Positions 16,160 through 48,579 are shown, numbered from the stretch's first letter. The stretch is DNA of 64,000 nt from an uncultured Dehalococcoidia bacterium (GCA_937901475.1 CALGTL010000162.1:441-64440), one strand, 5' to 3'. A program made the numbers and translations. The notes: generated by a model not told the origin, from the sequence alone.

Positions 16160-16238
16160 GCCCGCATCCTCACCCATTAGACAACCACCATGCAAGAGGC
16201 AAATGCCTCTTTTATCGGCGGCCCCCTCATTGGCTCAA

Positions 16239-21407: not shown

Positions 21408-23879
21408 TTGGTTACGCCGAACGCAAATGCGCTTTACGTAGAAGTCGTCGTCGATGCTAGGACCAATATCAGTGGCGACCGCTTCACGTATGAATGCCCT
21501 ACCAATTTGATTCTTGAGATAGGCCATCTCGTGCGCGTTCCGTTTGGGCAGCGCACACTCCACGGTGTTGTTGTTGCGCAGGCGCAGGAGTTGAATCTCT
21601 CTTATGTCAAGCCAGTGCTTGGCCTCATCCATCCAGAACCGGTCATCGACGCTGCTCACCTAAAGCTTGCCGAGTGGATCGCTCGCTACTACCGCGCGTC
21701 GCTGTTCGACGCGATTGCCCCTATGTTACCCCCAGGGATGCGCGGCCGAGCGCGAACCACCGTTCAGTTGACAGTAGACGCCGTGGAAGCTGAAAGCTTA
21801 CCTAGAGGAGCCAATCGGCTGCTCTCCTACCTGCGCTCCAACCCACGACCGCACCAGGTCGCGATGCTCACACGCAACCTCGGGCCATGGGTTCCCAACG
21901 CAGCGCGTGCACTGATTCACGCAGGGTTGCTGGAGGAGCGTATACCGGAGCCGGTGATTCGCGCTCTCCAGCGCAAAGCGGAAGTCGTTCGCCTTGCAAT
22001 CCCCGTTGCCAATATCGCTGCGCGCATCGAAACGATGGCGCGAGCACCACGGCAATCCTTATTGCTCAAGCACATTGCCTCTCACCCCACGGCAACTCAC
22101 TTTGCACCTGCCTTACGCAGAGAGTTCGGCTCCACAGCGCTCGTGGGCATCATCGAGAAAGGGCTTGTGTCTCTCTCAAAAGAACATCTTGCAATTCTCC
22201 CTCCTGGCAACCGTATAAGCGAGAATCCCCTACTGCCCACTGGTCCGCAGTCCGAAGCCCTCGCCTCTATAAACGCAGCCCAAGACGACCTTTCATCCAC
22301 TCCGAGGGCATTCCTTCTTGAAGGGGTTACTGGTTCAGGAAAAACTGAGGTTTACCTTCAATCTATCGCGCACTGCATGGCCGCAGGAAAGCGCGCCATA
22401 GTCCTGGTTCCTGAACTTTCGCTGACCCCTCAGACCGTGTCTCGCTTCGAGGCACGGTTCCCTGGGCAGGTCGCGCTGATTCACAGTGGACTTAGTCCAG
22501 CAATCCATTGGGAGGAGTGGTGGGCGGTCTATCGCGGTGAGCGCGGGATAGTAGTTGGGCCACGATCTGCCCTATTCGCCCCCGTGCGCGACCTTGGCCT
22601 AATAATCCTCGACGAAGAGCACGAGTGGACATACAAACAGGTAGATGCCTCACCCCGCTACCACGCACGCGATGTCGCCAATCAACTGGCGCGAATTACC
22701 GGTGCAACTGTAGTTTTAGGCAGTGCGACCCCTGACCTTGGCACGGCATATGCGGCCGAACGCGGAGCCATCGGCCGCTTAATTTTACCTTCGCGTATCG
22801 AACGGTCAGGTGCCGCCACTAATTTACCTGACGTCCGGATCATCGATATGCGTGATGAACTTCGACAGGGCAACAGCAGTGTATTTAGTAAGCATATGCA
22901 AGAGCGGCTTCATCACACTCTAGAAGCTGGCAAGCAATCCATTTTGTTCCTTAACCGCCGAGGCAGCGCAGGCATCGTGGAGTGCCGCAACTGCGGTCAC
23001 GTCGTCAAATGCGCACGGTGCGACACTCCACTCGCATTACACGGTGGCACCATCCATAGCAGTCCAACTCATAGGCAAGGGGGAACACTCGTATGTCACC
23101 ATTGCAACAAACGTCGGCAAGTACCATTAGCCTGCCCTAAATGCGGCAGCCTTCGTATTCGATCCCTCGGTGCCGGTACCCAGAAAATCGTTGAGGAGGT
23201 CTCCGCTCTTCTCCCCAGCGCGCGGGTGCTCAGGTGGGACAGCGATACCGCTTCAAATGCTGCAAGTCACGCCGGTCTGCTGGATGCTTTCGAATCAGGC
23301 GAAGCTGACATCATGGTTGGCACGCAGATGATCGCTAAAGGCCTGGACTTACCCTCGGTCACGCTCGTTGGCGTGATTCTCGCCGACCTAGGACTGAACC
23401 TACCTGACTTTAGGGCACCCGAACGTACCTTCCAATTGCTCACCCAGGTAGCTGGGCGCACGGGCCGCGGAGGAACCCGCGGCGAAGTTCTTATCCAGAC
23501 CTACCAACCTGATCACTACTCCATCCGAGCCGCAGCGCTCCAAGACTACCCTGCCTTCTACCGGGAAGAGATGGAGTACAGGCGCGAGCGCGGCAACCCT
23601 CCCCTGACTCGCCTAGTTCGGTTGCTGTTTGGTCATACCGAAGTCGCCTCTGCCCGCAACGAGGCACAACGGATGGCCAACAATTTACGTAAAATCGCCC
23701 GGGAGTGGGACATGCAGGACGTAGACGTCGTCGGGCCTGCACCGGGCTATCCTCCTCGTTTACGAGGAGCATGGCGCTGGCATGTATTCATCCGCGCCAT
23801 CAACCCTCAAGTCCTTCTGGATAAAGTTGAAATACCCCCCATGTGGATAGTCGATGTCGACCCCGTCAACGTCATCTAG
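21408..23879 (+). CDS. priA: Primosomal protein N' (replication restart helicase PriA)
   Basis: 823 aa. Walker A GVTGSGKTEVY, DEEH box (ILDEEHE), and a Cys-rich zinc insert CRNCGH..CARCD...CHHCN...CPKCGS. TTG start preceded by GGAGGAG. Confidence 0.9.
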   Translation: MVTPNANALYVEVVVDARTNISGDRFTYECPTNLILEIGHLVRVPFGQRTLHGVVVAQAQELNLSYVKPVLGLIHPEPVIDAAHLKLAEWIARYYRASLFDAIAPMLPPGMRGRARTTVQLTVDAVEAESLPRGANRLLSYLRSNPRPHQVAMLTRNLGPWVPNAARALIHAGLLEERIPEPVIRALQRKAEVVRLAIPVANIAARIETMARAPRQSLLLKHIASHPTATHFAPALRREFGSTALVGIIEKGLVSLSKEHLAILPPGNRISENPLLPTGPQSEALASINAAQDDLSSTPRAFLLEGVTGSGKTEVYLQSIAHCMAAGKRAIVLVPELSLTPQTVSRFEARFPGQVALIHSGLSPAIHWEEWWAVYRGERGIVVGPRSALFAPVRDLGLIILDEEHEWTYKQVDASPRYHARDVANQLARITGATVVLGSATPDLGTAYAAERGAIGRLILPSRIERSGAATNLPDVRIIDMRDELRQGNSSVFSKHMQERLHHTLEAGKQSILFLNRRGSAGIVECRNCGHVVKCARCDTPLALHGGTIHSSPTHRQGGTLVCHHCNKRRQVPLACPKCGSLRIRSLGAGTQKIVEEVSALLPSARVLRWDSDTASNAASHAGLLDAFESGEADIMVGTQMIAKGLDLPSVTLVGVILADLGLNLPDFRAPERTFQLLTQVAGRTGRGGTRGEVLIQTYQPDHYSIRAAALQDYPAFYREEMEYRRERGNPPLTRLVRLLFGHTEVASARNEAQRMANNLRKIAREWDMQDVDVVGPAPGYPPRLRGAWRWHVFIRAINPQVLLDKVEIPPMWIVDVDPVNVI

Positions 23880-28777: not shown

Positions 28778-29635
28778 ATGAAAATCGGCGCACATGTTTC
28801 CACATCTAAAAGCGCAGACTTGGCCATCGACCGTGCGGTAGAGATTGGGGCTGAGGCGGTCCAAGTCTTCGTGTCTCCTCCCCAATCATGGGGATTCAAA
28901 CCTCTTGATGAAAAGATTGCAGCAGACTTCAAAGCAAAGGCCCGCGAGTACAACATCGGACCCAATGTATTCCATGCCATCTATCTCGTCAGCCTCGGCT
29001 CCGACGATGACGCATTGATCAATCGAGGCATAAGCTCGTTGAAGAGGTACATGAACGCCGCAGGGGAATTAGATGCACTAGGGGTAATATTCCATCTCGG
29101 CTCCCACAAGGGCAAAGGCTTCGATGCTGTTAAGGCGAAAGTTGCTGAAGGGATACGCAATGTCCTTTCAGAATCACCCGATAACGTGTACTTGCTCTTG
29201 GAGAACAGCGCTGGCATGGGCAACCACATTGGCTCTAAATTTTCCGAGCTTGGCTCGATGCTCCGTGAGATTGATGACCGCCGCGTGCAGGTCTGCCTCG
29301 ACACGCAGCATAGCTTCGCCGCAGGCTACGACCTGAGGACGCCAGGAGCGGTAGCGGCGGCTATGGCCGAGTTCGATAAAGAGATCGGCCTGGAACACTT
29401 GAAGGCGGTGCACTGCAATGACTCCAAACCAGAACTCGGTGGCGCTGTGGACCGGCACGAAAACATAGGCGAAGGCACTATGGGTATCGGCGCTTTCGAG
29501 GCAATCATGGCCGACCCTTCCTTCCAGGAAGTGCCGTTCTACCTTGAGGTCCCAGGGTTCGAGGGCAAAGGCCCTGACAAGCAGAACATCGATTTGCTCA
29601 AGGGCATCCGCAAACTCGCTTCTCTGTCTAGTTGA
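28778..29635 (+). CDS. nfo: Deoxyribonuclease IV (endonuclease IV)
   Basis: 285 aa, with MKIGAHVS, HLGSH, LENSAGMG, CLDTQHSFAAGYD and HCNDSK...DRHENIGEG typical of Nfo. AAGGAG Shine-Dalgarno sequence. Confidence 0.92.
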   Translation: MKIGAHVSTSKSADLAIDRAVEIGAEAVQVFVSPPQSWGFKPLDEKIAADFKAKAREYNIGPNVFHAIYLVSLGSDDDALINRGISSLKRYMNAAGELDALGVIFHLGSHKGKGFDAVKAKVAEGIRNVLSESPDNVYLLLENSAGMGNHIGSKFSELGSMLREIDDRRVQVCLDTQHSFAAGYDLRTPGAVAAAMAEFDKEIGLEHLKAVHCNDSKPELGGAVDRHENIGEGTMGIGAFEAIMADPSFQEVPFYLEVPGFEGKGPDKQNIDLLKGIRKLASLSS

Positions 29636-29645
29636 GAATCGAAGC

Positions 29646-30011
29646 ATGCGTACACCAGAATTCGAGGCCCTCGTCAGAGAAGTAGTGGGGAACATCCCTG
29701 AGGTCTTCCTCAGGGTAATGACCAATGTCGACTTCCTCGTACGGCACCAGCCACTGAAGAGCCAGATTGAAGAAGCCGGTCTCGACGAAAACGAAAAACT
29801 ACTTGGGCTCTACGAGGGATTCCCGGTCACGGAAGCCTTCGACGGAAACATGGCCCCGCCAGACATAATCACAATATTCCAAGGGCCCATTGAAGAGATG
29901 TGCAAAAGCGAAGAGGAAATCAAGGAACAAGTGCGGCAGACGGTCATCCATGAGGTCTCGCACTTCTTCGGAATCAGCGATGCTCAACTCCATAGCTGGG
30001 GGCTCTACTAG
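29646..30011 (+). CDS. Small zinc metallopeptidase-like protein (DUF1025/zincin-like)
   Basis: HExxH motif in VIHEVSHFFGISD near the C-terminus. I use ATG 29646 (MRTPEFEAL...) because the track start at 29544 would overlap nfo. Confidence 0.7.
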   Translation: MRTPEFEALVREVVGNIPEVFLRVMTNVDFLVRHQPLKSQIEEAGLDENEKLLGLYEGFPVTEAFDGNMAPPDIITIFQGPIEEMCKSEEEIKEQVRQTVIHEVSHFFGISDAQLHSWGLY

Positions 30012-30069
30012 CCATTGTCTCCCTTTTGAAGCACCAGTAATCGGGGAAGAATCATGAGAGCACCAGGAT

Positions 30070-31125
30070 TTAGTTAATGCGCTCTGCCTTGAGGCGTTGC
30101 TCCGCGATCTCATCGGCCGCCTTCTTGGTGGTGATGCCCTCATCACGCGAGCGCTGAATCACACGTGTCACCGTGTCGAATATCTCACCAGCCTTTCTCA
30201 TCGCCCATTCTCGGCTGTAAGAGCCTGTGTACTCCGATGCTACGTTAATCACTCCTCCCGCATTCACAATGTAATCCGGTGCGTAAATAATCCCTCGCAA
30301 TCGTAACCGCTCCGCATCTGCACTCTCCTCGTGCAGCTGATTATTCGCGGCCCCGCACACAATAGGCGCCTGCAGCCGAGCAATTGTCTCCTCGTTCAGA
30401 ACACCACCCAATGCACACGGTGCAAACACGTCCGCTGCAACGTCGTAGATATCCTCAGCTCCCACTATCTCTACGCCAGGTAATTCGGCTGCCCGCGCCT
30501 TTGCTGCACCGTAGATATCTGTCACCACAAGCTTTACCCCTGCATCACGCAAATAAGACGCCAGCGACATCGCAACATTGCCGAAGCCTTGGACCGCAAC
30601 CGTCTTACCCTCCAGCGAATCAGTGCCCCATAGTGCGACCGCGCACGCACGCATGGCCTGGAATACACCGTAGCCAGTCACCACTGCAGGGTTACCACTC
30701 CCTCCCAAAGACTCAGGCAGCCCCAACACATGCTGCGTCTCGTGTGATATCCACTCCATTTCCTGAGCGGTCGCCCCCACGTCCTCGGTTGTCACATAGC
30801 GACCGTTCAAAGTCTCCACGAAGCGACCGTAGGAGCGGAACATTGCCTCGGTCTTATCCGTTCGTGGGTCGGCGACAACTAATCCTTTGCCACCACCGAA
30901 TGGCAACCCGGCCGCCGCTGACTTGTACGTCATCGCCTTTGACAGCCGCAATACATCCATGATCGCGTCATCATCGGTGGCATGTGGCCAAATGCGAGTT
31001 CCTCCCATAGATGGCCCCAGTTTGGTGTCATGAATAGCAATGAACGCCTTCAACCCCACAGCCGGATCAGTCCAAATAGCAAGTTCCTGGTGGCCATTCA
31101 CCTGCATGAATTCAATGAACTTCAT
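30070..31125 (-). CDS. Leucine dehydrogenase-type Glu/Leu/Phe/Val dehydrogenase
   Basis: AFIAIHDTKLGPSMGGTRIWP and PFGGGKGLV (catalytic Lys region), plus the NAD fold VAVQGFGNVA. ATG 31125 follows GGAGA. The track start at 31137 is a TTG four codons upstream. Confidence 0.85.
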   Translation of the reverse strand: MKFIEFMQVNGHQELAIWTDPAVGLKAFIAIHDTKLGPSMGGTRIWPHATDDDAIMDVLRLSKAMTYKSAAAGLPFGGGKGLVVADPRTDKTEAMFRSYGRFVETLNGRYVTTEDVGATAQEMEWISHETQHVLGLPESLGGSGNPAVVTGYGVFQAMRACAVALWGTDSLEGKTVAVQGFGNVAMSLASYLRDAGVKLVVTDIYGAAKARAAELPGVEIVGAEDIYDVAADVFAPCALGGVLNEETIARLQAPIVCGAANNQLHEESADAERLRLRGIIYAPDYIVNAGGVINVASEYTGSYSREWAMRKAGEIFDTVTRVIQRSRDEGITTKKAADEIAEQRLKAERIN

Positions 31126-31152
31126 CACTATCTCCAATCTGAAGAAAAAGAC

Positions 31153-32202
31153 CTAGCTAGTAAAAGTGTCCTTCGGGGCGTGGGGAGATGTGGTCCTTGG
31201 TTTACCCAAGAACGAGAGTCCCTCACGAGGTAGAACAAACAGAGCAATAACCACCGGGGGCAAGAACACTACTAGGTGCAAAACCAATCCATAGCCCAAA
31301 GCAAGCGCCTGTGGCACGCCCCAAATGCTAGCCAGTTCGACAACCGCAACCTCAAATGTCCCCAGCGCTCCTGGCAATCCGGGCATCGCCGTCGCGAAGA
31401 AAATTGCGCCAAAAATGAGAATTGTCGACTGTAGCATCGACAATTCCACTCCCATGCCATCGGCCAGCACGTAGGCCATAGGTCCTAGAACTAACCAATA
31501 CGCCGCAGTCAGCATCACAGTCCCCGAAAGGCGTCGCTTACGCGAAAGTAACATCGTCACAGCTTCATCGTAAGTATTGACTCCTGGGATACGGCGCATC
31601 AATGTGAATCGACGCGACAACCACCCCACATTCAACAGGGTCCCCAGAACCACTACGAACGCAAGGCCTGCAACAATAGCGGGCACCGCGCGAGCAGATA
31701 GCGTTGGCTCCACTGTTAGCGACACTGCCGCAAGCAGCAGCGTTACCCCAAGATCTTGCATGCGCGACATTACCAGCGTTGCCACCACCAAAGGGCCAGG
31801 AATGCGGTCGCGCAGCGTCAGCATCGCCAGCATCGCGGGCTCATCTAACAAGCGAATGGGTGACACGTTATTGAGCCCTAGGGAGGCATTCTCCACTAAA
31901 AACAACCGCGCCGTCCGCGCAGGATGTCCCACGAACAAGAATCGCCAGCGCAGCGCACGCAAGTAAGCAGATATCAACACCAACCCTAGCGCAATGCCCA
32001 CCGCCATTGGCGATGCGGCGGACAACTGCGTGCTAACGTCAGTCCAATCGATTCCTCGCGTAGCTACAGCTCCAAAAAAAAGTCCTATAGCGAAACCAAA
32101 TGGAACGATGACCTGCGGACGAGTCAGCATTATGGTGAACTTGAACAATCTTCTTTTCCTAGAAAATCTATGAGGAAATAGTGTGCGATGACTATTCCGC
32201 AT
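31153..32202 (-). CDS. UPF0104 / LPG-synthase-TM (MprF flippase-like) family membrane protein
   Basis: Multi-pass hydrophobic protein with the family-typical LRALRWRFLF segment after the second TM. I use ATG 32202, 13 nt after the upstream stop. The track start at 32346 would overlap the ATPase gene by 131 nt. Confidence 0.7.
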   Translation of the reverse strand: MRNSHRTLFPHRFSRKRRLFKFTIMLTRPQVIVPFGFAIGLFFGAVATRGIDWTDVSTQLSAASPMAVGIALGLVLISAYLRALRWRFLFVGHPARTARLFLVENASLGLNNVSPIRLLDEPAMLAMLTLRDRIPGPLVVATLVMSRMQDLGVTLLLAAVSLTVEPTLSARAVPAIVAGLAFVVVLGTLLNVGWLSRRFTLMRRIPGVNTYDEAVTMLLSRKRRLSGTVMLTAAYWLVLGPMAYVLADGMGVELSMLQSTILIFGAIFFATAMPGLPGALGTFEVAVVELASIWGVPQALALGYGLVLHLVVFLPPVVIALFVLPREGLSFLGKPRTTSPHAPKDTFTS

Positions 32203-32215
32203 AAACAAGTCAGGA

Positions 32216-33862
32216 TTACCCGAATAGGTCCTTCTTATCGCCAGGCCCCATAGGCCCACGACCATAGCCAGGTATCGACATCTCGGTGGCGAAATCCTGG
32301 TAATCACGTGTGCGTACCACGACCGGCATGCGTAACGCATGCCCAAACAACAGCGCTTGTTGCTGCGACTCCAACCGCGACAACACTCCCTTCAGCTCGC
32401 GTGAGCCAGGTGCACCCTTGAGCACCGCGTCAACATCCCGCTCGTTGTCGAGTTGGCAGGTGATACGCGTACCCAATTGACTCAGCACTTCTTCGTCAAT
32501 CCCTGAAGGGCGCTGATCGACCACCAACAGCGTCACGTGATACTTCCGCATCTCTCGCGCAATCGTCCCGAAAATAGTCTGGCTAGCAATCCCGCCGCTC
32601 AGGAAGCGGTGGGCTTCTTCAATAGTGATAACCAATGGGTCTGGTTGCTTTGCATCTGAGGCCAACGCCTCCTCTGTTCGCTTGCGATACTCCGCATGAA
32701 TTCGGCGCGTGATGAGATTTGCCACTAACACGTAGGCCATCTGGTCATTTCCATAGCGACCAAATTCCATAACCACATGCTTTCCGGACGCTAGGTGATC
32801 CAACACTTGCTTGACCGCGCCACCACCTGACGGCGCCTCTGGTTGGATGAATGCGATACGATCCAAATCACGCAATTTCCGACGGAGAGCTCCCAGCACA
32901 CCAGCGTGTTCCCCCTCAGAAGCAAGCCCCGCCATCGCACTCGCATCCATACCTAAAAACTCACCAATCCAGCGCTTCCCGTAGCGATCATAAAGTGTGT
33001 AGCAAGCGTTCACGCCAGCATCCGAAATACCCAGAGTCGAAGACAGTATCGCAATATCTTCAGGTTCGATCTCGTCGAGGCCTATTTTCACGTCATAATC
33101 AGGCGTTAAATTACGCCTTCGCGCAGACTCTAGATCCAGCGAGAACACCGACACACCGCTCTGCAATATCTGGCGTAGCCCTTTCACCGCATAGCCACTC
33201 TCCGAGGTCGCCTGCCAGCCATACTCAGAATGCATGTCGAAAATCAAGTGCGTCGCCAGCCCACGCTGGGCTATCGCCGTCAGCAGAATGCGGGTAAGGA
33301 AACTCTTGCCCGAGCCACTTTTCCCGAAAACCCCGTTGGAACGCTTCACCAATTCCTCAAGGTTCAAGCAAACCCGGGTGTCTTCCATGTCTAATGGGCT
33401 ACCGATATAGATGTGGGTTTTATCTTCTTCGCCAAAGATCATCTGCACGTCTTCATTCGTGGCTCGATTCACAGGAGCGAAGTGAGCTGGCAATGACCGT
33501 GCAGGCTGTGGCTCCTCCTCTCCCATGCCAGTCATCAGCATCGGCGTAACCTGAGCCTGGGCGAACGTTCCCGTGCCTGATAGCACTTCCGCCATTGCGG
33601 CATCCGCGTTTGCGATGTTCGAGGACAGTCGGCCGTCCGCACTCTCGAGCGACAAATCAGTGATGATGCCGAAGTAGCGGTGGCGCGTACCCTGAATCGT
33701 CACGAAGGTGCCCACCTTCGCATCTTCCACAGTGCCGTTGCCCGTCAGCCGTACATCCAATCCCTGCGACAGCGAGCCGCCAACGATGATTCCGATCTCT
33801 ACCGCCTCATCCTTTGGTGGCAAGGGCTCAGCGAGACCTAATTCTTCAAAGGCGTTGCTCAA
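32216..33862 (-). CDS. HerA/FtsK-superfamily ATPase (DUF87/HerA-like)
   Basis: 548 aa. N-terminal barrel-like segment (IGIIVGGSLSQGLDVRL...VGTFVTIQGTRHRYFGIITDLS), Walker A GVFGKSGSGKSF, Walker B-like LVITIEEAHRFL, and LLVVDQRPSGID. The TTG start overlaps the upstream TGA stop (TTGA). Confidence 0.8.
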   Translation of the reverse strand: MSNAFEELGLAEPLPPKDEAVEIGIIVGGSLSQGLDVRLTGNGTVEDAKVGTFVTIQGTRHRYFGIITDLSLESADGRLSSNIANADAAMAEVLSGTGTFAQAQVTPMLMTGMGEEEPQPARSLPAHFAPVNRATNEDVQMIFGEEDKTHIYIGSPLDMEDTRVCLNLEELVKRSNGVFGKSGSGKSFLTRILLTAIAQRGLATHLIFDMHSEYGWQATSESGYAVKGLRQILQSGVSVFSLDLESARRRNLTPDYDVKIGLDEIEPEDIAILSSTLGISDAGVNACYTLYDRYGKRWIGEFLGMDASAMAGLASEGEHAGVLGALRRKLRDLDRIAFIQPEAPSGGGAVKQVLDHLASGKHVVMEFGRYGNDQMAYVLVANLITRRIHAEYRKRTEEALASDAKQPDPLVITIEEAHRFLSGGIASQTIFGTIAREMRKYHVTLLVVDQRPSGIDEEVLSQLGTRITCQLDNERDVDAVLKGAPGSRELKGVLSRLESQQQALLFGHALRMPVVVRTRDYQDFATEMSIPGYGRGPMGPGDKKDLFG

Positions 33863-34482
33863 ATCGTGCCCTCGCCGATTGGCAAGCGCCGCACGATCGC
33901 ATTGATGCGCGCAGTATCCCCTGAAAGTTCCATGGCCACCGTTCGGCTTGCCGCGATCAGGAACGCTCGTGGGTCGTTGAACGCTTGCGATGCGTTGCGT
34001 AACGCCGCAGCCATAGCATCGTCGCCAGACCCACCAAATCCGGCGAGGAGGTACAGAAAATCCAATCGCGGAACCGCGCCAATGCCAAAGAAGCTGCGCA
34101 CTTCATCCGGGGTACAGGTGTAGAGGAATGTATGTATCCGTGGCGGTTGCGACGGTAGGTACTGGTGCACCACTCCGTTCGCCTCACGATGCCCGGTGAT
34201 CGCAATCTTCACGTCGGTACGTAATAATTTCTCAAGCTGTGGATGCGCCGCATAGATCTCTGCCTCTGTCTCCACTTCAGCACCTCGCGCGATCACCCGC
34301 CTCGACGGATCAAGCGCAGTCGTCGTGATACCGCTCACCACGCCGAACACGTCCTCGCCCGCCCGCACAAGCGTTCCCAGTGCAGGAGACTCGTACAATT
34401 GATGGCACTGCCCCATCAATTGCTCCACGGAGGCCTCGACCACCTCACCAAACCGCGTCGTTGGTATGTACTTACTCACCAT
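33859..34482 (-). CDS. Hypothetical protein; P-loop-less paralog of the HerA N-terminal region
   Basis: 207 aa. FGEVVEASVEQ...LGTLVRAGEDVFGVVSGIT and TCTPDEVRSFFG parallel the N-terminal roughly 170 residues of the adjacent ATPase (IGIIVGGSLSQ...VGTFVTIQG..YFGIITDLS; RATNEDVQMIFG). It has no Walker A motif. Confidence 0.5.
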   Translation of the reverse strand: MVSKYIPTTRFGEVVEASVEQLMGQCHQLYESPALGTLVRAGEDVFGVVSGITTTALDPSRRVIARGAEVETEAEIYAAHPQLEKLLRTDVKIAITGHREANGVVHQYLPSQPPRIHTFLYTCTPDEVRSFFGIGAVPRLDFLYLLAGFGGSGDDAMAAALRNASQAFNDPRAFLIAASRTVAMELSGDTARINAIVRRLPIGEGTI

Positions 34483-34797
34483 TCATCGATTGTCGCGGAG
34501 CGACGCTGCCAGCAGCAAGGGGGATTTGACCGCGCTCTGATAACCAACCCTCTCCTTTCGGATCATCAGTACGCCAGTGACCTTTAGGCCTGCAGCGAAG
34601 CCACGAGTTTCCAGGGTGAGGCGCGATTTGATTCACACCGAAGCACACCAATGAACCCTGGGACGTGATACTGTCATCCACGCTATAAGGCCCCGCCTCC
34701 GCATCCTGCTCACCGTAGTGATTAGTCGCATCATCGTGGTCTTCGGGACCATCATCACAGCCCGGCTCACTCGCCGGTAGATTCGAGAGACCAAACC

Positions 34798-35793
34798 TTG
34801 ACTGAGCAACAGCCAGCCCCCCAGGAAGCCACGCACTTCACCAAAGAACTACTTATAGATGCCATGCGCCACCTGACCGCTGACTTCGCTGCAGCTCAGT
34901 CTGGCGAAGCGGAGGATGAGCGTGCCATGTCGCGCCTCACCCATGCCCAGAAAATCGGACTCCACAAGCTCGCGCCTGAAGCAATCGCCGCAATGGAGAG
35001 TGCAATGGAAGCGGTCCGGGATTTAACATGGCCCGGCGGGCTTGATCAACGTTATCTGGGTCTCGTAGGCATCGTAGAGACGCTCGCCCGTATCAGTACT
35101 GAATTGCTACCACACAACGATAAAAGCGCGCACCTCACGGGCCTTATGCCTGTGATGCATGCAGCTTGGGTTGCCTCTGGTTTACGCCTACGAACTCGAC
35201 TTGCCGACCGCATGCGTGGGCTCTGTGTGGTCATAGATCCCCAGATGACCAAGGATCGCCCTGTAAGCGATATTGCCGAGCAAGTCCTCAAAGGAGGCGC
35301 CATTGCTATCCAGCTACGCGTAATGCCCCGCGACATCGACACAGCAGAACGGGTTCAAGAGTTATGCAGCGCCTCAGGAGCGCTCTTCATAATCCAAGAT
35401 CGCGTAGATATCGCGGCAGCCATCAAAGCAGACGGAGTCCGGCTTCCCGAAAACGGACTCTCTCTAGACGCCGTCCGCAAGGTATTGACTCCATGGCAGA
35501 TTGCAGGACCCTCCGCCACCACTGCGGACGAGGTACGAACCGCTATCGCTGCGGGCGCGGACTACGTTGCAGTGAGTACCGCGCGTGGCCTAGATCTCCT
35601 GCGAACTATCGGAATGCACGTCACCAAGGGCGGCCCTCCGTTGATTGCCTATCGTGGCGTCACGGCAAAGAACGCTGCGGAAATCGCCAATGCCGGCGCT
35701 GATGGATTCTGCGTGACCGCCACAGTTACCGAGTCTCCCGACCCGCAATTCGCTACTGCTAGGCTCATCGAAGCTTTCACGGAAGGCATGTAA
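34798..35793 (+). CDS. ThiE/TenI-superfamily (thiamine-phosphate synthase-like) protein with an N-terminal extension
   Basis: The C-terminal roughly 195 aa align by eye to ThiE (GGAIAIQLR, FIIQDRVDIAAAIKADGV, GADYVAVS, AGADGF). The first roughly 135 aa are an unrecognised helical region. The start is TTG 34798; the first in-frame ATG is at 34864. Confidence 0.65.
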   Translation: MTEQQPAPQEATHFTKELLIDAMRHLTADFAAAQSGEAEDERAMSRLTHAQKIGLHKLAPEAIAAMESAMEAVRDLTWPGGLDQRYLGLVGIVETLARISTELLPHNDKSAHLTGLMPVMHAAWVASGLRLRTRLADRMRGLCVVIDPQMTKDRPVSDIAEQVLKGGAIAIQLRVMPRDIDTAERVQELCSASGALFIIQDRVDIAAAIKADGVRLPENGLSLDAVRKVLTPWQIAGPSATTADEVRTAIAAGADYVAVSTARGLDLLRTIGMHVTKGGPPLIAYRGVTAKNAAEIANAGADGFCVTATVTESPDPQFATARLIEAFTEGM

Positions 35794-37118: not shown

Positions 37119-38012
37119 ATGCGGGCAACGCTACGTCGTATCTATTTGTCCTCGCTACTCGTGATTACTGTTGCTTTAGTAGCCAATGCATGCTCAGCGA
37201 AGGGTGAGGCTGTTCTATACATCGGAGGGATACCTGATCAGGATGTTTCACTACTGGAAGCCCGGTTCGGTAGATTAGCCGAATATTTGGCTTATCAATT
37301 GAACGTGGAAGTGCAGTACTTGCCATCCAGTCACTATTCAGCATTAGTGACCGGATTCAAGAATAACGATCTCCAGTTGGGCTGGTTCGGAGGCCTGACT
37401 GGTGTGCAAGCGAGACTGGCCACACCCAATGCCCAGGCCTTAGCCCAACGACCCCGAGACGAGAATTTCCACTCCGTATTCGTGGCAGACCCAGCCCTTG
37501 GTTTATCTAACCTCACCCAAGTAGCAGGGTTATCGTTGACCTTCGGCAGCGAAAGTTCGACCTCTGGGCACCTGATGCCTAGGTCATTCTTGATTGATGC
37601 CGGAGTCGACCTCGAATCTGATTTGAATGGCCCTCCTTCTTACTCAGGGTCCCATGATGTGACCTGGAAACTCGTCGAATCGGGTGCATTTCACGTTGGT
37701 GCGTTGAACGAAGCAGTATGGGAAGCGCGTGTAGCTTCCCGCGAAGTCGACCTCACGAAGGTCGATGTGTTCTACCGAACTCCCCCTTACTATGACTATC
37801 ACTGGGTTGTCCGTGGTGACCTAGATGCTACGTTCGGAGAGGGAACGACCAAGCGGCTCCGTCAGGCTCTCCTTTCGATTGACACATCTCGCGGCGGCGA
37901 GGAAGCCGAGATTGCAGAAGCATTCCAAACCGACCGGTTCATCGCAACCAATAACGACAACTACAAGGCGATTGAAGAAATTGCAACCACGCTCGGCATC
38001 ATTGAACGTTAG
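37119..38012 (+). CDS. phnD: Phosphonate/phosphite-type ABC transporter substrate-binding lipoprotein (PhnD family)
   Basis: ATG 37119 follows GGAGG. Lipoprotein-like signal LLVITVALVANAC. PhnD-like GGIPDQD...YSALVTGFKNNDLQLGWFGG. Confidence 0.85.
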   Translation: MRATLRRIYLSSLLVITVALVANACSAKGEAVLYIGGIPDQDVSLLEARFGRLAEYLAYQLNVEVQYLPSSHYSALVTGFKNNDLQLGWFGGLTGVQARLATPNAQALAQRPRDENFHSVFVADPALGLSNLTQVAGLSLTFGSESSTSGHLMPRSFLIDAGVDLESDLNGPPSYSGSHDVTWKLVESGAFHVGALNEAVWEARVASREVDLTKVDVFYRTPPYYDYHWVVRGDLDATFGEGTTKRLRQALLSIDTSRGGEEAEIAEAFQTDRFIATNNDNYKAIEEIATTLGIIER

Positions 38013-38766
38013 ACCGGCACTCGCAGTCAGTGTCGAAGGTTTAACGAAAAGGTTTGGCATCACTAGTGCCGTGAACGATGTTGAATTGTTCGTTCCACCC
38101 GGACAGGCCATTGCTTTCGTTGGGCCAAGTGGCGCTGGGAAAACCACGCTACTGGAACTCATAGCTGGTTCTGTAAGCCCGGACGCTGGACGAGTGAGTC
38201 TGTATGGCCAAGATCTGTCTTCGTTGAAACCTGGACGCGAGTTAGCATCACTTGTCGGTGTCGTTGCGCAGCAATACGACCTGGTCCCCAATCTTTCAGC
38301 GTTGCAGAACGTGCTCGCAGGTCGCTTGGGAGCCTGGGGTGCTTGGAAATCGATCTTGTCGCTACTTGCTCCACGTGACAAGCCCTTGGCGATGCGAGCG
38401 TTGGAACGCGTGGGTATCGCAGGGCGAGCGGAGGAACGAGCGGGACGACTGTCTGGTGGTGAGCAACAGCGAGTGGCTATCGCCAGAGTTGTGGTCCAAG
38501 ACCCCAAGATAATTCTCGCTGATGAACCAGTATCGTCACTGGACCCAGCACGCGCAGAGGATGTTCTTGCCCTACTGGTCTCGATTGCCCACGAGCGAAA
38601 GCTGACCCTCATCGCATCGATGCATGCTATTGACCTGGCAACCCGCTATTTCGACCGACTGGTGGGGTTACGCAATGGGCGGATCCTCTTCGATTGCCCG
38701 GCGAGCGACGTGACTCGTACCGACCTAAATGCGCTTTACAAGATTGAGGAGGAACGCGGTGGCTAG
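38002..38766 (+). CDS. phnC: Phosphonate-type ABC transporter ATP-binding protein
   Basis: Walker A GPSGAGKTT, signature LSGGEQQRVAIAR, Walker B IILADEP. TTG 38002 is the likely start and overlaps the phnD stop. The track ORF extends upstream only because that frame is open. Confidence 0.88.
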   Translation: MNVRPALAVSVEGLTKRFGITSAVNDVELFVPPGQAIAFVGPSGAGKTTLLELIAGSVSPDAGRVSLYGQDLSSLKPGRELASLVGVVAQQYDLVPNLSALQNVLAGRLGAWGAWKSILSLLAPRDKPLAMRALERVGIAGRAEERAGRLSGGEQQRVAIARVVVQDPKIILADEPVSSLDPARAEDVLALLVSIAHERKLTLIASMHAIDLATRYFDRLVGLRNGRILFDCPASDVTRTDLNALYKIEEERGG

Positions 38767-42717: not shown

Positions 42718-42901
42718 CCAGCTATCCATGAGTGCACACCACTGCGACAGCGAAATATAGCGTCTAACGATAGCGTCCGCTAGCCCTTCCTGAAGGCGCA
42801 GGGAAAGCCCGAATGAGTAGCACAGCGCAAGGAGCGAAGGGGGCAGGAAAACGGGCACCGTCAGGTTGTTACAGCTGGTTGCCAAATACAGCAGCCAGGT
42901 A

Positions 42902-44401
42902 TTAAACCAGATTGAGGGCAGCCTGCCGAGCGACTTCCAAAAGCCCGCCTGGCCAAAGGCCAAGCACTAGGATTGCACAGGACGTCACAGCTAACGCCGC
43001 CCACGCGTACAGCGGCAAAGTGATGCGTATGGGGTTGTCCGACTCCCGTAGGTACATCACTCGCACGACACTCAGGTAGTAGTAGGCAGACAACACGCTG
43101 TTCAGCAGGCCAATCACAGCCAGCCACAACATGTCGGCGTTAATAGCAGCGTTGAACAGGAACAATTTACCGATGAATCCCACCGTCGGCGGGATTCCCG
43201 TCAACGACAACAACGCCAACCCGAGGAGCGCTGCCAGGAGAGGTGCGCGTCGCCCCATCCCCGCAAGCCCATCGATTGTCTCGTCGCCAGTACGATTAGT
43301 AACCGCCATCACCACGAAGAACGCCGTCATGTTCATCGCGGCATAGCCCGCCAAGTAGAACAGTACTGCTTCGATACCCAGCTCCGGGTCGGGCCCTGAG
43401 CCCACGTAAGCCGCAACGCCCATGAGCAAGTAGCCTGCCTGTGCTATGGCGCTATAACCCAGTAAACGCTTCACGTTAGTCTGCGCTATCGCAATCACGT
43501 TACCGACCGTCATTGTTATCGCCGCAAGCACTGCGAATAACAATGACCAATCCGACGCCACCGGGTCGAGTCCCGTGTAAAACACCCGCAGCACCACCGC
43601 GAACGCGGCAGCTTTGCTTGCCACCGCAAGGTACGCCGCAACAGGGGTTGGTGCACCCTCATAGACGTCAGGTGTCCACATTTGAAACGGCACTATAGAC
43701 AGCTTGAAACCGAATCCTGCTACCACCAACACCACACCCACCATCACCGCCACACCACCGAATGGAATTGATGATTCACCGTTCATCAACATCTGCCCAA
43801 TAGCCGGAATCGCAGGGTCAAACGATACTAGCTGCAACGTGCCTGTCGCTCCGTACAGGAAAGCAAATCCATAGAGCAGCACAGCTGACGATACCGCCGA
43901 CAGCATCAGATATTTCAGGCCAGCCTCTAACGATTTTAGTCGCGTTTTGTTATACGCCGCCAGCGCGATTACCGGAAGCGAAGCCAACTCAAGCGAGATG
44001 TAGACCGTAATCAAGTCACCCGCCGCAGGTAACAGCATCAGACCCGCTGAGGACAACAACAGTAGACCGTAGAACTCAGCCTGGAATGGATGAAACCGTG
44101 ACGCATATTCCGATGACGAAAGGAACAACAGCGCCAGCACAGTCACAGTGAGAAACTTGAAATACAACGCGAACTCATCAACCACCAGCGCCCCGTTGAA
44201 GGCAGTATCGGCCCCTGTCGTGCGAATGTCGCTCCACACGCTCACGCCAGCGACCATCGGCACCAGCAAACCAATGACCGCCACTGCAATAACGACACCC
44301 TTGCGTCGCACTGCCAAATCGAGCGAGACCACGATGATTGCGAGGACTATGACCGACAATTCCGGCGAAATAAGGAATAAATCACGAATCCCAATGTTCA
44401 T
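42902..44401 (-). CDS. nuoN: NADH-quinone oxidoreductase subunit N
   Basis: 499 aa polytopic antiporter-like subunit, last gene of the operon. Contains FKLSIVPFQMWTPDVYEGAPTPV. Confidence 0.9.
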   Translation of the reverse strand: MNIGIRDLFLISPELSVIVLAIIVVSLDLAVRRKGVVIAVAVIGLLVPMVAGVSVWSDIRTTGADTAFNGALVVDEFALYFKFLTVTVLALLFLSSSEYASRFHPFQAEFYGLLLLSSAGLMLLPAAGDLITVYISLELASLPVIALAAYNKTRLKSLEAGLKYLMLSAVSSAVLLYGFAFLYGATGTLQLVSFDPAIPAIGQMLMNGESSIPFGGVAVMVGVVLVVAGFGFKLSIVPFQMWTPDVYEGAPTPVAAYLAVASKAAAFAVVLRVFYTGLDPVASDWSLLFAVLAAITMTVGNVIAIAQTNVKRLLGYSAIAQAGYLLMGVAAYVGSGPDPELGIEAVLFYLAGYAAMNMTAFFVVMAVTNRTGDETIDGLAGMGRRAPLLAALLGLALLSLTGIPPTVGFIGKLFLFNAAINADMLWLAVIGLLNSVLSAYYYLSVVRVMYLRESDNPIRITLPLYAWAALAVTSCAILVLGLWPGGLLEVARQAALNLV

Positions 44402-44404
44402 CCG

Positions 44405-45904
44405 CTAGCCCCCGAAACCGACGAGGCTGAAGCCTGCCATGATGGGGTCAATCCCAACCGCGAAAACATCTGTTAGCACACTTGGGTACAGGCCCACCAC
44501 GAAGATGGGGATTATCAGCACCAGCATTGCCGCTACATCCACCGGTCTCGCATCCGTGAGGCTACCCCACCGTGCCATGCTCGGCCCGAACAGCGTTCGC
44601 TGCGCTGTCCACAGGATGTAGCCCGCAGCCAGCACCACGCCAAACGCCGCCAGCGCTGTCGCCAGCCCAAAAACCTGAAACGTACCCAGGAAAATCAACA
44701 ATTCAGCCACGAACCCACTCGTCGTCGGTAAGCCCAGCGACGCCAGTCCAGCGACCATGAAGCCGAGTGCAATCAACGGCATCTGCTTCGCGAGGCCGCC
44801 CATGTCGGGGATGTGTCGAGTATGCGTTCGCTCGTAGATGAGTCCCACCACCACGAACAATAACCCCGTAATGGTACCGTGAGTAAACAACTGCAAGGCC
44901 GCACCGTTCATTCCTACGCTACTCAGCGAAGTTCCGGTACCCGCGACCGATGCGATTCCCAGCGTTACGAAGCCCATATGGCTCACGCTCGAGTAAGCGA
45001 CCATGCGCTTGAGGTCTGTTTGCCGCATCACAATGAACGCCCCATACAGCACGCTTACCACAGCAATGATTGACAAGGGCGATGCGAAATCTGCCATCTG
45101 TTCCGGGAATAAGCCTGCGTTGATTCGCAGCAACCCATACCCACCCATCTTCAGAAGCACACCGGCCAGCATCACACTCACTGCCGTAGGTGCATCCGTA
45201 TGCGCATCAGGCAGCCAAGTGTGTAGAGGGAACATTGGCAGCTTCACCGCGAACGCGATAAGGAATCCAGCGAAGATCAACCAGGTTGGCACCAATAGGT
45301 TTGCCATGTCCCGTCCCACCAGCGCCATAATGTCGAACGTCCTCTCACCACTGGGCATTGAGAAGTACAGCGTCAGCATCGCTGCCAGCATGAACGCCGA
45401 GCCTAGGAACGTGAAAATAAGGAATTTCATCGCCGAGTACTCGCGCCGCCCTGTTCCCCATGAGGAAATGAGGAAGAACATTGGTACCAGCTCCAGTTCC
45501 CAAAAAACGAAAAACAGGACCAGATCCAGTGAAACAAACACGCCCATGACCGCGCCTTGCAACAACAGCAGCCACATGTAGTACTGGTTCGGTCGGTCCT
45601 TCACATTCCATGAAACCAGCACCGCAGCTAACCCCAGGATCCCGTTGAGCAGCACCATGGGCGCGCTCAATCCATCCATTGCCAGTAGGTACTGGATATT
45701 GAACGCAGATATCCAGTCGAAGCGCTCGGTAAACTGGTATCCACCAGACCCGGTGTCGTAGCCAACGAAGGCCACCAGAGCCAGTGCCAGCTCCGCAATC
45801 GCGGCAGTGAGCGCGATCTGCCGTGCCCTCTGCTGTGTCTCGCCTAGCACTAGCACTAGCAAGGCGCTGGCAATGGGAAGGAAAATAAGGGCGCTAAGCA
45901 ACAT
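44405..45904 (-). CDS. nuoM: NADH-quinone oxidoreductase subunit M
   Basis: 499 aa, with VKLPMFPLHTWLPDAHTDAPTAVSV typical of NuoM. Confidence 0.9.
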   Translation of the reverse strand: MLLSALIFLPIASALLVLVLGETQQRARQIALTAAIAELALALVAFVGYDTGSGGYQFTERFDWISAFNIQYLLAMDGLSAPMVLLNGILGLAAVLVSWNVKDRPNQYYMWLLLLQGAVMGVFVSLDLVLFFVFWELELVPMFFLISSWGTGRREYSAMKFLIFTFLGSAFMLAAMLTLYFSMPSGERTFDIMALVGRDMANLLVPTWLIFAGFLIAFAVKLPMFPLHTWLPDAHTDAPTAVSVMLAGVLLKMGGYGLLRINAGLFPEQMADFASPLSIIAVVSVLYGAFIVMRQTDLKRMVAYSSVSHMGFVTLGIASVAGTGTSLSSVGMNGAALQLFTHGTITGLLFVVVGLIYERTHTRHIPDMGGLAKQMPLIALGFMVAGLASLGLPTTSGFVAELLIFLGTFQVFGLATALAAFGVVLAAGYILWTAQRTLFGPSMARWGSLTDARPVDVAAMLVLIIPIFVVGLYPSVLTDVFAVGIDPIMAGFSLVGFGG

Positions 45905-47932
45905 CTAGCTCCTCACCAGGTACGTCCACAGCAGCGTAATCACGCCAACAGATACGGCAATTCCATACGCCTGCACCTGGCCACTCTGAAGCTGCCCGAC
46001 AAATTTGCCAGTGTTGCGCCCGGCCCAGCCCACGAGATCCACAGTACCATCCACAACCTTGCGATCAATCCAATCGCTAGCCAGGAACACGCCCTTGAAT
46101 AACGCGCGACGCACCACCAGCGTCTCGTAGAAGTAATCCATGTAGTAGCGCTGATCCAACACCCGGTTCAACATATGCCACTGCTTAGGCATGCGAGCTA
46201 AATCGAACCATTTCATCCCATAGATTGCTACCGCCAAAGTGATACCGCCCAAAACCAACGTCATCGATAGTCCCGCTATCCAGACCACTAACTCGGGGGA
46301 GGGTTCGTTGAAGAAGTGCGAAAACCAATGCGCGGGCACAGGCCCTAGTTCAATAACGCTGTTCAGTACAGCGCCTGAGCCAATAGCCATCAAGCCAAGC
46401 ACCGACATCGGCACTAGCATGGAAAGAGGGGATTCACCCTTATGCACGTGGCTATGGGCCTCATCAGCGGCCCGATCCGCCATTGGCACAGCTTCGATCC
46501 CTCCGCGAAATTCACCATGAAAAGTCAAAATAATCAGCCGGAACACATAGAACGCTGTCATCCCAGCTGCGACCAACGCCAACCAGAACGTCGCTTGCCC
46601 GACAACACCAGCTCCCGTACCAGGTGTTAGTTGACTAATACTCCATGCCGCAGCCAGCACTTCATCTTTGCTCCAGAAACCTGCTAATGGGAAAACACCC
46701 GCAAGGCTCAATCCGGCGATGACCGTCAGCCCGTATGTCACTGGCATCCAGGCGCGCAGGCCACCCATGTATCGCATATCGAACGTCTGCACCGAGTGAT
46801 GCACACTGCCGGCACTCAGGAATAGCAAGCACTTGAAAAACGCATGATTAAGCAGGTGGAACAGCGCCACCCCAGGCGCACCGACGCCCAGTGCAATGAA
46901 CATGTAACCCAACTGACTCACCGTCGAAAACGCAAGCACTCGCTTGATATCATTCGTAACCAACGCCATCGTCGCAGCAATCACCGCAGTTACACCGCCG
47001 GTCAGTGCCACAACATTCAAGACCCATGACGAAGCCTCGAACAGAGGGAACATTCGAGCCACCAAGAAAACCCCAGCCGCAACCATCGTTGCAGCGTGTA
47101 TTAACGAACTCACAGGGGTTGGTCCTTCCATCGCATCAGGCAACCACGTATTCAACGGGAACTGGGCTGACTTACCCACTGCCCCTGCAAACAGACCAAG
47201 GGCCGCCCAAGTCACGAGGCTCGCTGACAGCAGCGGTGCAGCCGAGTTGATATCGGGGATCTCAAATGGATTCTGTCCCCGTACCAGGAATTCGCCTCGG
47301 TGTGAAAACAACCACATCAGCGCGAGCATAAACCCGAAATCGCCGATGCGAGTCACGATGAAGGCCTTCTTGGCAGCAGCTGCAGCAGCAGGTCGGTGGA
47401 ACCAGAACCCAATCAGCAGGTACGAGAACAATCCGACCAATTCCCAAAACAGAAATGCTTGAATCAAGTTGTACGCTAGAACCAGCCCTAACATCGCCGC
47501 CGTGAAAAATGACATGTAAGCGAAGTAGCGCGGGTAGTCCACGAACGCCCCATCTTCGGCATTGGCGGCCTTGCGCATGTAGCCGAGTGAGTACACTTGC
47601 ACTAACAGGCTTACGCCCGTTATCACCACCGCCATCATGGCCGACAGCGGGTCCAGTAGCACGCCAATAGTCAGCTCGAAAGCACCCTGGGTAACGTCAC
47701 CACCCACAGTGAACCATGAGTGCGGAGAGAACCCAATCGACTCCCCATGGTGGCCGCGAACCGAGTTCAACGCCCAAAGGCTCAACGCGAACGCTCCGCC
47801 TATCGCCACGATACCTACAGAAGCACTAGCTTGCCACAGCGACCGGGTCCATGGACGGAGCACTGCGATAATGAGGAATCCGCCGAGTAACGGCAGACCC
47901 ACGATGGCCCAGACAGCAGCCTCGTTAATCAA
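45905..47932 (-). CDS. nuoL: NADH-quinone oxidoreductase subunit L
   Basis: 675 aa, with GKSAQFPLNTWLPDAMEGPTPVSSLIHAATMV and the long C-terminal extension typical of NuoL. TTG start. Confidence 0.92.
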   Translation of the reverse strand: MINEAAVWAIVGLPLLGGFLIIAVLRPWTRSLWQASASVGIVAIGGAFALSLWALNSVRGHHGESIGFSPHSWFTVGGDVTQGAFELTIGVLLDPLSAMMAVVITGVSLLVQVYSLGYMRKAANAEDGAFVDYPRYFAYMSFFTAAMLGLVLAYNLIQAFLFWELVGLFSYLLIGFWFHRPAAAAAAKKAFIVTRIGDFGFMLALMWLFSHRGEFLVRGQNPFEIPDINSAAPLLSASLVTWAALGLFAGAVGKSAQFPLNTWLPDAMEGPTPVSSLIHAATMVAAGVFLVARMFPLFEASSWVLNVVALTGGVTAVIAATMALVTNDIKRVLAFSTVSQLGYMFIALGVGAPGVALFHLLNHAFFKCLLFLSAGSVHHSVQTFDMRYMGGLRAWMPVTYGLTVIAGLSLAGVFPLAGFWSKDEVLAAAWSISQLTPGTGAGVVGQATFWLALVAAGMTAFYVFRLIILTFHGEFRGGIEAVPMADRAADEAHSHVHKGESPLSMLVPMSVLGLMAIGSGAVLNSVIELGPVPAHWFSHFFNEPSPELVVWIAGLSMTLVLGGITLAVAIYGMKWFDLARMPKQWHMLNRVLDQRYYMDYFYETLVVRRALFKGVFLASDWIDRKVVDGTVDLVGWAGRNTGKFVGQLQSGQVQAYGIAVSVGVITLLWTYLVRS

Positions 47933-47972
47933 GCGCAGCCTCCCGCAACCGCCGCTTTTTGCAAAGGCGTCG

Positions 47973-48167
47973 TCATAATTTCCTAAGAATCTCGTCCGCC
48001 ACGTGCTCCCTACCGCGAGGAACCATGACCCTGAACGCCACAGACTCTCCGTGATTCAAGATGCCGCCTTCGGGCAAGAGGCGCACAGGCAAGCCTTCGC
48101 CTTCGAGGACTTCTTTCCACATCTCGGCCAACATCAGGGTCGGCGTTTTTTTGTAATCAACCCACAT
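47973..48167 (-). CDS. Small DUF2007-like protein embedded in the nuo operon
   Basis: 64 aa, MWVDYKKTPTLMLAEMWKEVLEGEGLPVRLLPEGGILNHGESVAFRVMVPRGREHVADEILRKL. The pattern (helix...L..EGIP v..., then V.VLVP.....A.EIL) resembles the DUF2007 small beta-alpha-beta family. ATG start. It lies 62 nt after nuoK and 40 nt before nuoL. Confidence 0.5.
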   Translation of the reverse strand: MWVDYKKTPTLMLAEMWKEVLEGEGLPVRLLPEGGILNHGESVAFRVMVPRGREHVADEILRKL

Positions 48168-48229
48168 ATTCCAAACTCTCAGCCCGCTCTAGCAGGTTGT
48201 CGTCCTATCAAATCAACCAGACATTTCCA

Positions 48230-48577
48230 TCAGCGCCGCATCAGCGACGCCTCTGTCACGTCAACTGAATCTTTCGTCCGCACCATCGCAATCACCAGAG
48301 CCAGTCCTAATGCCACCTCCGCGGCAGCAACCACAATCACAAACACCGCAAAAGACTGTCCAGCGAGGAGAGTAGATTCGGCGATTGGCGTCACCTCGCC
48401 TGCCGCACGCAGCGCAGCAGGTGTTACATACCTTGAGAACGCCACTAATGCCACATTCACTGCGTTAAACATAATCTCGACCGATATAAGCACTGCAATC
48501 ACGTGACGCCGCGAAAGAGCACCGTAAAGCCCTATGCAGAACAAAATGGCAGATAAGATGAGTAATCGTTCCAACAC
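48230..48577 (-). CDS. nuoK: NADH-quinone oxidoreductase subunit K
   Basis: 115 aa, with LFCIGLYGALSRRHVIAVLISVEIMFNAVNVALVAFS and VVAAAEVALGLAL. It carries a loop about 15 aa longer than usual between TM2 and TM3. Confidence 0.9.
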   Translation of the reverse strand: MLERLLILSAILFCIGLYGALSRRHVIAVLISVEIMFNAVNVALVAFSRYVTPAALRAAGEVTPIAESTLLAGQSFAVFVIVVAAAEVALGLALVIAMVRTKDSVDVTEASLMRR

Positions 48578-48579
48578 GT

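Follow-up and report, generated by a model that had tools for sequence, protein, structure and literature searches.

The stretch of DNA analysed here, 64,000 nucleotides from an uncultured Dehalococcoidia bacterium (GCA_937901475.1 CALGTL010000162.1:441-64440) and hereafter called the window, carries on its minus strand three closely packed genes (Table 1). Gene A encodes a small protein that the database sources label 'hypothetical protein', gene B (herA) encodes an ATPase of the HerA type, and gene C encodes a flippase-like membrane protein. A first-pass annotation made from the sequence alone had read the three as a single module, and its gene coordinates, the overlap between A and B, the short gap between B and C and the peptides that it quoted were all found again in the sequence and its translations. 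Comparison with relatives leads to a different grouping: A and herA form a near-invariant gene pair with start/stop coupling, and the ancestral and commonest arrangement of this pair is an operon reading nurA-A-herA. NurA-HerA is regarded as a two-protein machine, composed of a hexameric motor (HerA) and a dimeric nuclease (NurA). What is new is the third gene, A, for which Pfam, NCBIfam and PADLOC hold no model, and we found no description in the literature of a third NurA-HerA component or of a stand-alone HAS-barrel protein.

The overlap of the A stop codon with the herA start codon is consistent with co-translation of A and HerA, and a stop-start overlap of the same type joins the two genes in a relative (L002). 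Ratios of nonsynonymous to synonymous substitution rates (dN/dS), calculated against the two closest relatives, are 0.07-0.11 for A and 0.03-0.04 for B; because of these low values both can be taken as genuine genes rather than chance open reading frames (ORFs), and A as something other than a decaying remnant. ORF calling also returned A-B fusions of 705-797 amino acids, which were rejected because they arise where the B frame runs on upstream and overlaps A in a different frame.

Table 1. Genes, protein parts and junctions of the A-herA locus in the window
Feature	Position	Strand	Description
Gene A	33859..34482	minus	207-amino-acid ORF, ATG start; undescribed family, P-loop absent
Protein A domains	~residues 10-135; ~residues 140-200		HAS-barrel-like beta-barrel (N-terminal); helical bundle (C-terminal)
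Gene B (herA)	32216..33862	minus	548-amino-acid ORF, TTG start; HerA-type hexameric ATPase
Protein B parts			HAS-barrel, DUF87 core, Walker A GKSGSGKS, Walker B ITIEEAH, DQRPS arginine-finger region
Gene C	31153..32202	minus	349 amino acids from ATG at 32202; flippase-like (LPG_synthase_TM / UPF0104) polytopic membrane protein
A stop/B start overlap (TTGA)	33859..33862	minus	4 nucleotides
Intergenic region, gene A / ThiE-like gene (divergent)	34483..34797	none	Presumed promoter location

Protein B, proposed at first sight to be an ATPase of the HerA/FtsK type, is on the evidence of its domains and motifs a complete and intact HerA ATPase. It matches the Pfam domains DUF87 (the HerA central domain; 1.9e-25) and HAS-barrel (3.2e-7) as well as HerA chains among the PDB sequences (4d2i, for example, at 1.2e-19), and no variation was seen among 30 orthologues in its Walker A, Walker B and arginine-finger residues. 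Several HerA models of NCBIfam and PADLOC also match, all below the equivalog cut-offs, and since the NCBIfam score falls so far short (99 bits against 800) B represents a distinct HerA lineage. Against the NCBIfam models of FtsK and of the ATPases of conjugation or type IV secretion systems (VirB4, TraG, TraC) it scores 9-15 bits with cut-offs of 325-800, and against the CedD model 65 bits with a cut-off of 600. The first reading had allowed for a conjugative or type IV secretion ATPase within a mobile element; neither these scores nor the surrounding genes point to one.

Protein A has no match in Pfam, NCBIfam or PADLOC, and the Pfam HAS-barrel model (PF09378) does not reach it even at E<=1, in keeping with the earlier placement of A outside characterised families. 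Its sequence contains no Walker A motif, BLASTP returns no match between A and B, and a profile of A finds none among the PDB sequences; aligned family against family with hhalign, A and B reach only E=0.07, in an alignment that pairs residues 4-61 of A with residues 16-79 of B, the same segments that the first-pass annotation had set side by side. The AlphaFold2 model of A, built with 38 homologues (predicted local distance difference test, pLDDT, 89.5; predicted template modelling score, pTM, 0.85), consists of an N-terminal beta-barrel followed by a helical bundle, and all 50 matches listed by Foldseek when this model was compared with the PDB are HerA chains (best E=1.6e-6). These alignments extend over 129-201 columns, mostly 130-150, and the matches include HerA from Sulfolobus, Thermococcus and Deinococcus, HerAs associated with SIR2 or DUF4297, and TdpA. 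Within the A family, the Pfam HAS-barrel model is matched by 5 of 14 divergent members (best E=5.8e-7) and by 3 of 38 close relatives at E<=0.063, and a weak HAS-barrel match is precomputed for the relative P0260. The resemblance between A and B is not significant by pairwise sequence comparison, yet it is real, and strongly supported, at the level of fold and family. The structural model thus bears out the earlier description of A as a P-loop-less paralog of the HerA N-domain: A is, by its predicted fold, a HAS-barrel paralog of the N-terminal domain of HerA in which the ATPase core is missing and a C-terminal helical bundle has been added. Motifs conserved across the family are T54...R61..ARG67, PQLxxLLRT89 and LPPxPPRIH117.

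An exhaustive profile search resolved the A family into 980 clusters at 50% identity, and the best 150 of the 980 profile matches were inspected. Three independent genome scans, pooled with several metagenomic contigs, yielded 162 distinct A loci. Wherever their taxon is stated, family members belong to Chloroflexota, Dehalococcoidia, Dehalococcoidales or SAR202, a single record reading only 'bacterium'. The A-herA genes were found in at least 167 species; where the downstream sequence is long enough to tell (153 loci), HerA is encoded on the same strand no more than 3 kb downstream of A in 151, and the gap between the two genes has a median of 30 nucleotides (155 loci).

The 64 kb of the window encode neither Sir2 nor DUF4297, proteins A and C have no such match in Pfam or PADLOC, and tblastn together with a custom hidden Markov model gave only chance matches for NurA in the window, in the methionyl-tRNA synthetase (MetRS) and PurQ genes. 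The initial statement that these three HerA partners are absent is therefore right for the window, but for NurA it does not extend to the wider family. In distant relatives, the gene of about 400 amino acids directly upstream of A on the same strand encodes NurA (Pfam NurA, 1e-22 to 1e-26), as seen in 32 of the 38 loci L043-L080. Where 6 kb or more upstream of A is available (121 loci), 79 loci have nurA upstream on the strand of A and 46 have it directly adjoining, and divergent metagenomic members of the A family likewise show the order nurA-A. A scan anchored on NurA gave matches in at least 570 species, and 47 of its 80 best loci (L081-L160) read nurA-A-herA. One predicted protein (P0227) resembles a fusion of NurA and A; it was set aside, the join having the look of a frameshift or a mis-called gene.

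In the clade of the window (A at least 50% identical to the window's A), no NurA is encoded within the 8-kb flanks of A-herA. The gene is nevertheless kept: NurA clusters were found on contigs identical in length to four complete chromosomes that carry A-herA-C (2381319, 3298779, 2388059 and 2938702 bp), and a further one lies on a 1.53-Mb contig that agrees in length with the one whose A is 68% identical to that of the window. Since nurA persists, unlinked, on A-herA chromosomes, a rearrangement must have occurred between nurA and A in this clade. On the 3.30-Mb chromosome nurA lies at ~50 kb and A-herA at ~2.34 Mb; on the 1.53-Mb contig (L167) nurA still follows its usual SelB neighbour with A-herA no longer next to it; and in two metagenome-assembled genomes (MAGs) of a sister subclade nurA and A-herA occupy separate contigs. 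A remained with herA in every case of a split operon that was seen. A block of Leu/Glu dehydrogenase, zincin-like peptidase and Nfo-like AP endonuclease genes (28778-31137 in the window) lies downstream of herA in both NurA-linked and NurA-unlinked clades and recurs in many loci (e.g. L064, L066, L070, L076), which places the breakpoint upstream of A rather than downstream of herA. In a neighbour-joining tree of the loci L081-L160, the NurA genes with no A-herA in their vicinity form three or more distinct groups, and this suggests that the nurA-A-herA operon was broken more than once.

One locus carries further repair genes. On a Dehalococcoidales MAG contig (CAZHZF010000005.1; L168:6001-12353, the contig that also holds L172), genes for A (186 amino acids) and HerA (541 amino acids) are followed by a Metallophos/Mre11-like gene (403 amino acids) and an SbcC/Rad50-like gene (855 amino acids), an order resembling the archaeal herA-mre11-rad50 cluster. 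Among 171 loci this was the only contig with Mre11 or Rad50 near A-B, and neither is encoded near A-B in the window. An association with Mre11-Rad50 characterises the archaeal operons; bacterial systems do not require it.

The combination of genes, which the first-pass annotation could not map to any described system, maps to NurA-HerA, the closest system known (Deinococcus radiodurans, Sulfolobus, Thermococcus; PDB 4d2i, 7wrx, 9x1l). As in that system, B combines a HAS-barrel with a RecA-like DUF87 core, Walker A and B motifs and an arginine finger, most relatives encode the NurA nuclease in the same operon, and one has adjoining Mre11-Rad50 genes. The differences are an extra HAS-barrel protein of 180-230 amino acids encoded between nurA and herA, the unlinking of nurA in the window's clade, and the distinct HerA lineage to which B belongs. 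We consider it moderately probable that A serves HerA as an accessory subunit within an end-processing machine of the NurA-HerA kind, and that C has no part in it; A-HerA would then be a chromosomal, vertically inherited repair or recombination machine of the Dehalococcoidia.

The separation of nurA from A-herA bears on two other explanations. In the window's clade, A-HerA could have become independent of NurA, serving as a DNA translocase with some other nuclease or in some other process, with the unlinked nurA put to a different use. The distance of ~1 Mb between the two loci by the shorter arc of the 3.3-Mb chromosome fits such an outcome, and functional uncoupling can go with the breakage of an operon. 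Both genes are, however, retained and conserved in the same genomes, no alternative nuclease consistently adjoins A-herA, and no second HerA lies beside the stand-alone nurA genes of L166 and L167, so that we regard independence from NurA as improbable. The other explanation makes NurA, and not HerA, the target of A, which as a free copy of HerA's docking surface would be a decoy or chaperone that keeps the nuclease inactive until it is handed over to the HerA ring. Here the position of A between nurA and herA is suggestive, as is the fact that a HAS-barrel face is what binds NurA in known complexes (PMC9960219); yet once the operon is split A is always found with herA and never with nurA (A is near none of the 33 stand-alone NurA loci, nor near nurA in L166 or L167), and it is with herA that A shares its stop/start coupling. 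We think a decoy role rather unlikely, and prefer to see in A a subunit that works with HerA.

Gene C, the third member of the proposed module, behaves differently from A and herA. Its product matches LPG_synthase_TM (PF03706, 3.1e-34) over its full length in Pfam and TIGR00374 (flippase-like, 2.5e-18) in NCBIfam, so the family to which it was first assigned is correct. It resembles the MprF/LPG_synthase_TM family in having the whole transmembrane flippase-like domain, and differs from MprF in that the lysyl-phosphatidylglycerol synthase domain is absent (the bifunctional MprF model gives 17.5 bits with a cut-off of 600); C is, by its predicted domains, a stand-alone flippase-like protein. The 13 nucleotides between the B stop codon and the C start codon read tcctgacttgttt, but this start is doubtful: the ATG at 32202 is internal to a longer minus-strand ORF (31153-32346), and most homologues align only from about residue 25. 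A start at Met25 would widen the gap between B and C to ~85 nucleotides. In the window C is probably co-transcribed with A and B.

Beyond the window, A, B and C do not generally co-occur. Gene C was found in 33 of the 162 A loci, all of them in the window's clade, and follows herA in ~32. It is skipped in L003, L005 and L008, where the Leu/Glu dehydrogenase gene comes immediately after B, and has moved in L033, where it lies beside that dehydrogenase gene, several kb off and on the other side of A. The survey of gene neighbourhoods that the first-pass annotation had proposed for its triad thus dissolves the module, C having been relocated independently of the other two. Within the clade, the ThiE-like gene upstream and the dehydrogenase gene downstream are as syntenic as C, and for this reason the adjacency of B and C reads as the ordinary gene order of close relatives and carries little functional signal; C and the downstream dehydrogenase are best described as syntenic neighbours and not as components of the system.

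These observations count against the membrane-linked function that the first-pass annotation had drawn from C. In its general form, A, HerA and C would make up a membrane-anchored, nuclease-free translocation system of three parts. Membrane-associated HerA-like ATPases are known, Thermus TdtA (PMC5365140) being an example; TdtA and the archaeal Ced ATPases share with B both membership of the HerA/FtsK superfamily and a membrane protein encoded nearby, and the tight packing of the three genes on one strand in the window and the unlinked nurA of its clade can be counted on the same side. In contrast to those systems, however, C accompanies HerA within a narrow clade only, where shared ancestry explains the adjacency, and no integrative and conjugative element or pilus surrounds it. 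The conserved motifs of B are unaltered, and its scores against CedD, VirB4 and TraG models lie far under the cut-offs. With no comparative support from the conservation of C, we judge such a three-part system highly improbable. Least probable of the readings considered is its local version, in which A-HerA, anchored in the membrane and working without a nuclease, was re-used in the window's clade to translocate DNA or another polymer, and would constitute an undescribed HerA system.

The surroundings of A-herA are those of core chromosomal, housekeeping DNA. The window encodes RNase J, MetRS, RadA/Sms, ClpC, ribosomal protein S1, PriA and SecDF, together with an Nfo-like AP endonuclease, a Leu/Glu dehydrogenase, ThiE, a phosphonate transporter, complex I and an H+-pyrophosphatase, and its guanine-plus-cytosine content is uniform along its length. 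No relaxase, pilus or integrase gene was found in the window, which shows no sign of a defence island, a conjugation system or a mobile element. At ~8-19 kb from the three genes lie RadA/Sms (14729-16195, minus strand) and PriA (21408-23879, plus strand), with ClpC and S1 between these two; the nearby repair and replication genes are probably core-genome context.

Such surroundings are relevant to a further explanation, that the locus belongs with the HerA-class anti-phage systems such as SIR2-HerA and DUF4297-HerA, A being a new effector or sensor. In SIR2-HerA (Nezha) and DUF4297-HerA (PDB 8sub, 8j4u, 8ziq), as proposed here for A, the HAS-barrel face of a HerA hexamer recruits a partner encoded next to it, structures of defence HerAs are among the fold matches of A, and B scores on HerA models of PADLOC (best 8.4e-37) and on anti-phage HerA models of NCBIfam. 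The matches to defence models are generic, however, and in NCBIfam the repair HerA models outscore them. A has no Sir2, DUF4297 or other effector domain and no enzymatic domain of any kind, and the partner encoded with A-herA is NurA and, once, Mre11-Rad50. In contrast to the patchy, island-borne occurrence of defence systems, A-herA is housekeeping-like, vertically inherited and under strong purifying selection, with class-wide synteny across its many species. An anti-phage function is therefore very unlikely in our view.

Several features of the window lie outside this argument. The ThiE-like gene (34798-35793) is kept upstream of A on the opposite strand throughout the window's clade; the Pfam TMP-TENI match of its product covers residues 142-308, leaving ~140 N-terminal residues unmatched. 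Between this gene and A, the first-pass annotation had pointed to a leaderless-type promoter, TTGCTG-N18-GACAAT-N6-ATG. The strings are present (34518-34480, the TTGCTG-N18-GACAAT part at 34518-34489), but the two hexamers agree with the sigma-70 consensus at 3/6 and 4/6 positions, and a sigma-70 scan of 30900-34900 returned 0 sites against 2.2 expected in shuffled sequence, so that the proposed promoter does not rise above chance. In the phosphonate transporter region, two long ORFs overlap almost fully (37821-38612, minus strand; 37825-38766, plus strand); the plus-strand ORF contains the P-loop GPSGAGKT of a typical ATP-binding cassette (ABC) transporter ATPase, and the minus-strand ORF is probably an artefact. 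A marked positive adenine-thymine skew (+0.1 to +0.24) extends over 42900-52000 and coincides with a minus-strand complex I (nuo) operon, with three Proton_antipo_M genes, NADHdh and the 49-kDa subunit; an operon of membrane subunits such as this probably explains the skew.

If A is an accessory subunit of a NurA-HerA machine, known complexes indicate where it might act. HerA and NurA assemble at a stoichiometry of 6:2, the HAS-barrel crown of HerA is the face to which NurA binds, and the HerA hexamer delivers duplex DNA to NurA for resection (PMC9960219). The stop/start overlap would cause A to be made in step with HerA, and A would bind HerA as an accessory subunit that takes no part in catalysis. 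Its likeliest site of action would be the HAS-barrel face of HerA, since that is where the NurA dimer docks in known complexes. A may there serve as an adaptor or extra ring joining the six-fold HerA to the two-fold NurA or, alternatively, gate the docking of NurA or the entry of DNA, while HerA would move double-stranded DNA into NurA for 5'-3' resection like the archaeal and Deinococcus complexes. Our best guess is that the HerA ring has in A its cap, regulator or partner, and we are less confident in any particular geometry. The specific proposal of an obligate third subunit, with A as an additional barrel ring or adaptor that links the HerA hexamer to the NurA dimer, is a tentative one that we hold possible without thinking it likely.

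A number of points weigh against A as an accessory subunit of NurA-HerA. Two testable A loci, L009 and L170, have no HerA nearby. In the first (L009:7908-8576) the gene order is DAK2-DegV-A and HerA is not within reach; in the second (L170:3249-3791) the genes flanking A encode an aminoacyl-tRNA synthetase and an AP_endonuc_2 protein. These may be orphan copies of A, or HerA may have been relocated. Conversely, 33 of the 80 best NurA-anchored loci have no A-herA nearby, and given these loci A may not be obligatory for NurA-HerA function. For the window, NurA is absent from the 64 kb, and its presence in the source genome is extrapolated from related chromosomes. Protein A is mildly acidic (isoelectric point 5.7), which gives no hint of DNA binding and favours no particular partner. 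We infer the putative role of A as adaptor or gate from gene order and fold. The physiological role of NurA-HerA in bacteria is itself only partly settled in the literature on Thermus and Deinococcus.

The Dehalococcoidia and SAR202 are abundant, mostly uncultured bacteria of the ocean and subsurface whose DNA repair has been little studied. In this class a third, strongly conserved gene is wedged between nurA and herA and remains beside the motor gene where the operon has broken up, and its product is, by its predicted fold, a free-standing copy of the very domain by which HerA binds its partners. If A is a real subunit, it would represent a new way to couple or regulate rings of the HerA family, of interest for DNA repair and equally for the anti-phage systems built on HerA, in which the same docking face is used. 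In that case ~1000 sequence clusters now annotated as 'hypothetical' would also acquire a name and a role that can be tested.

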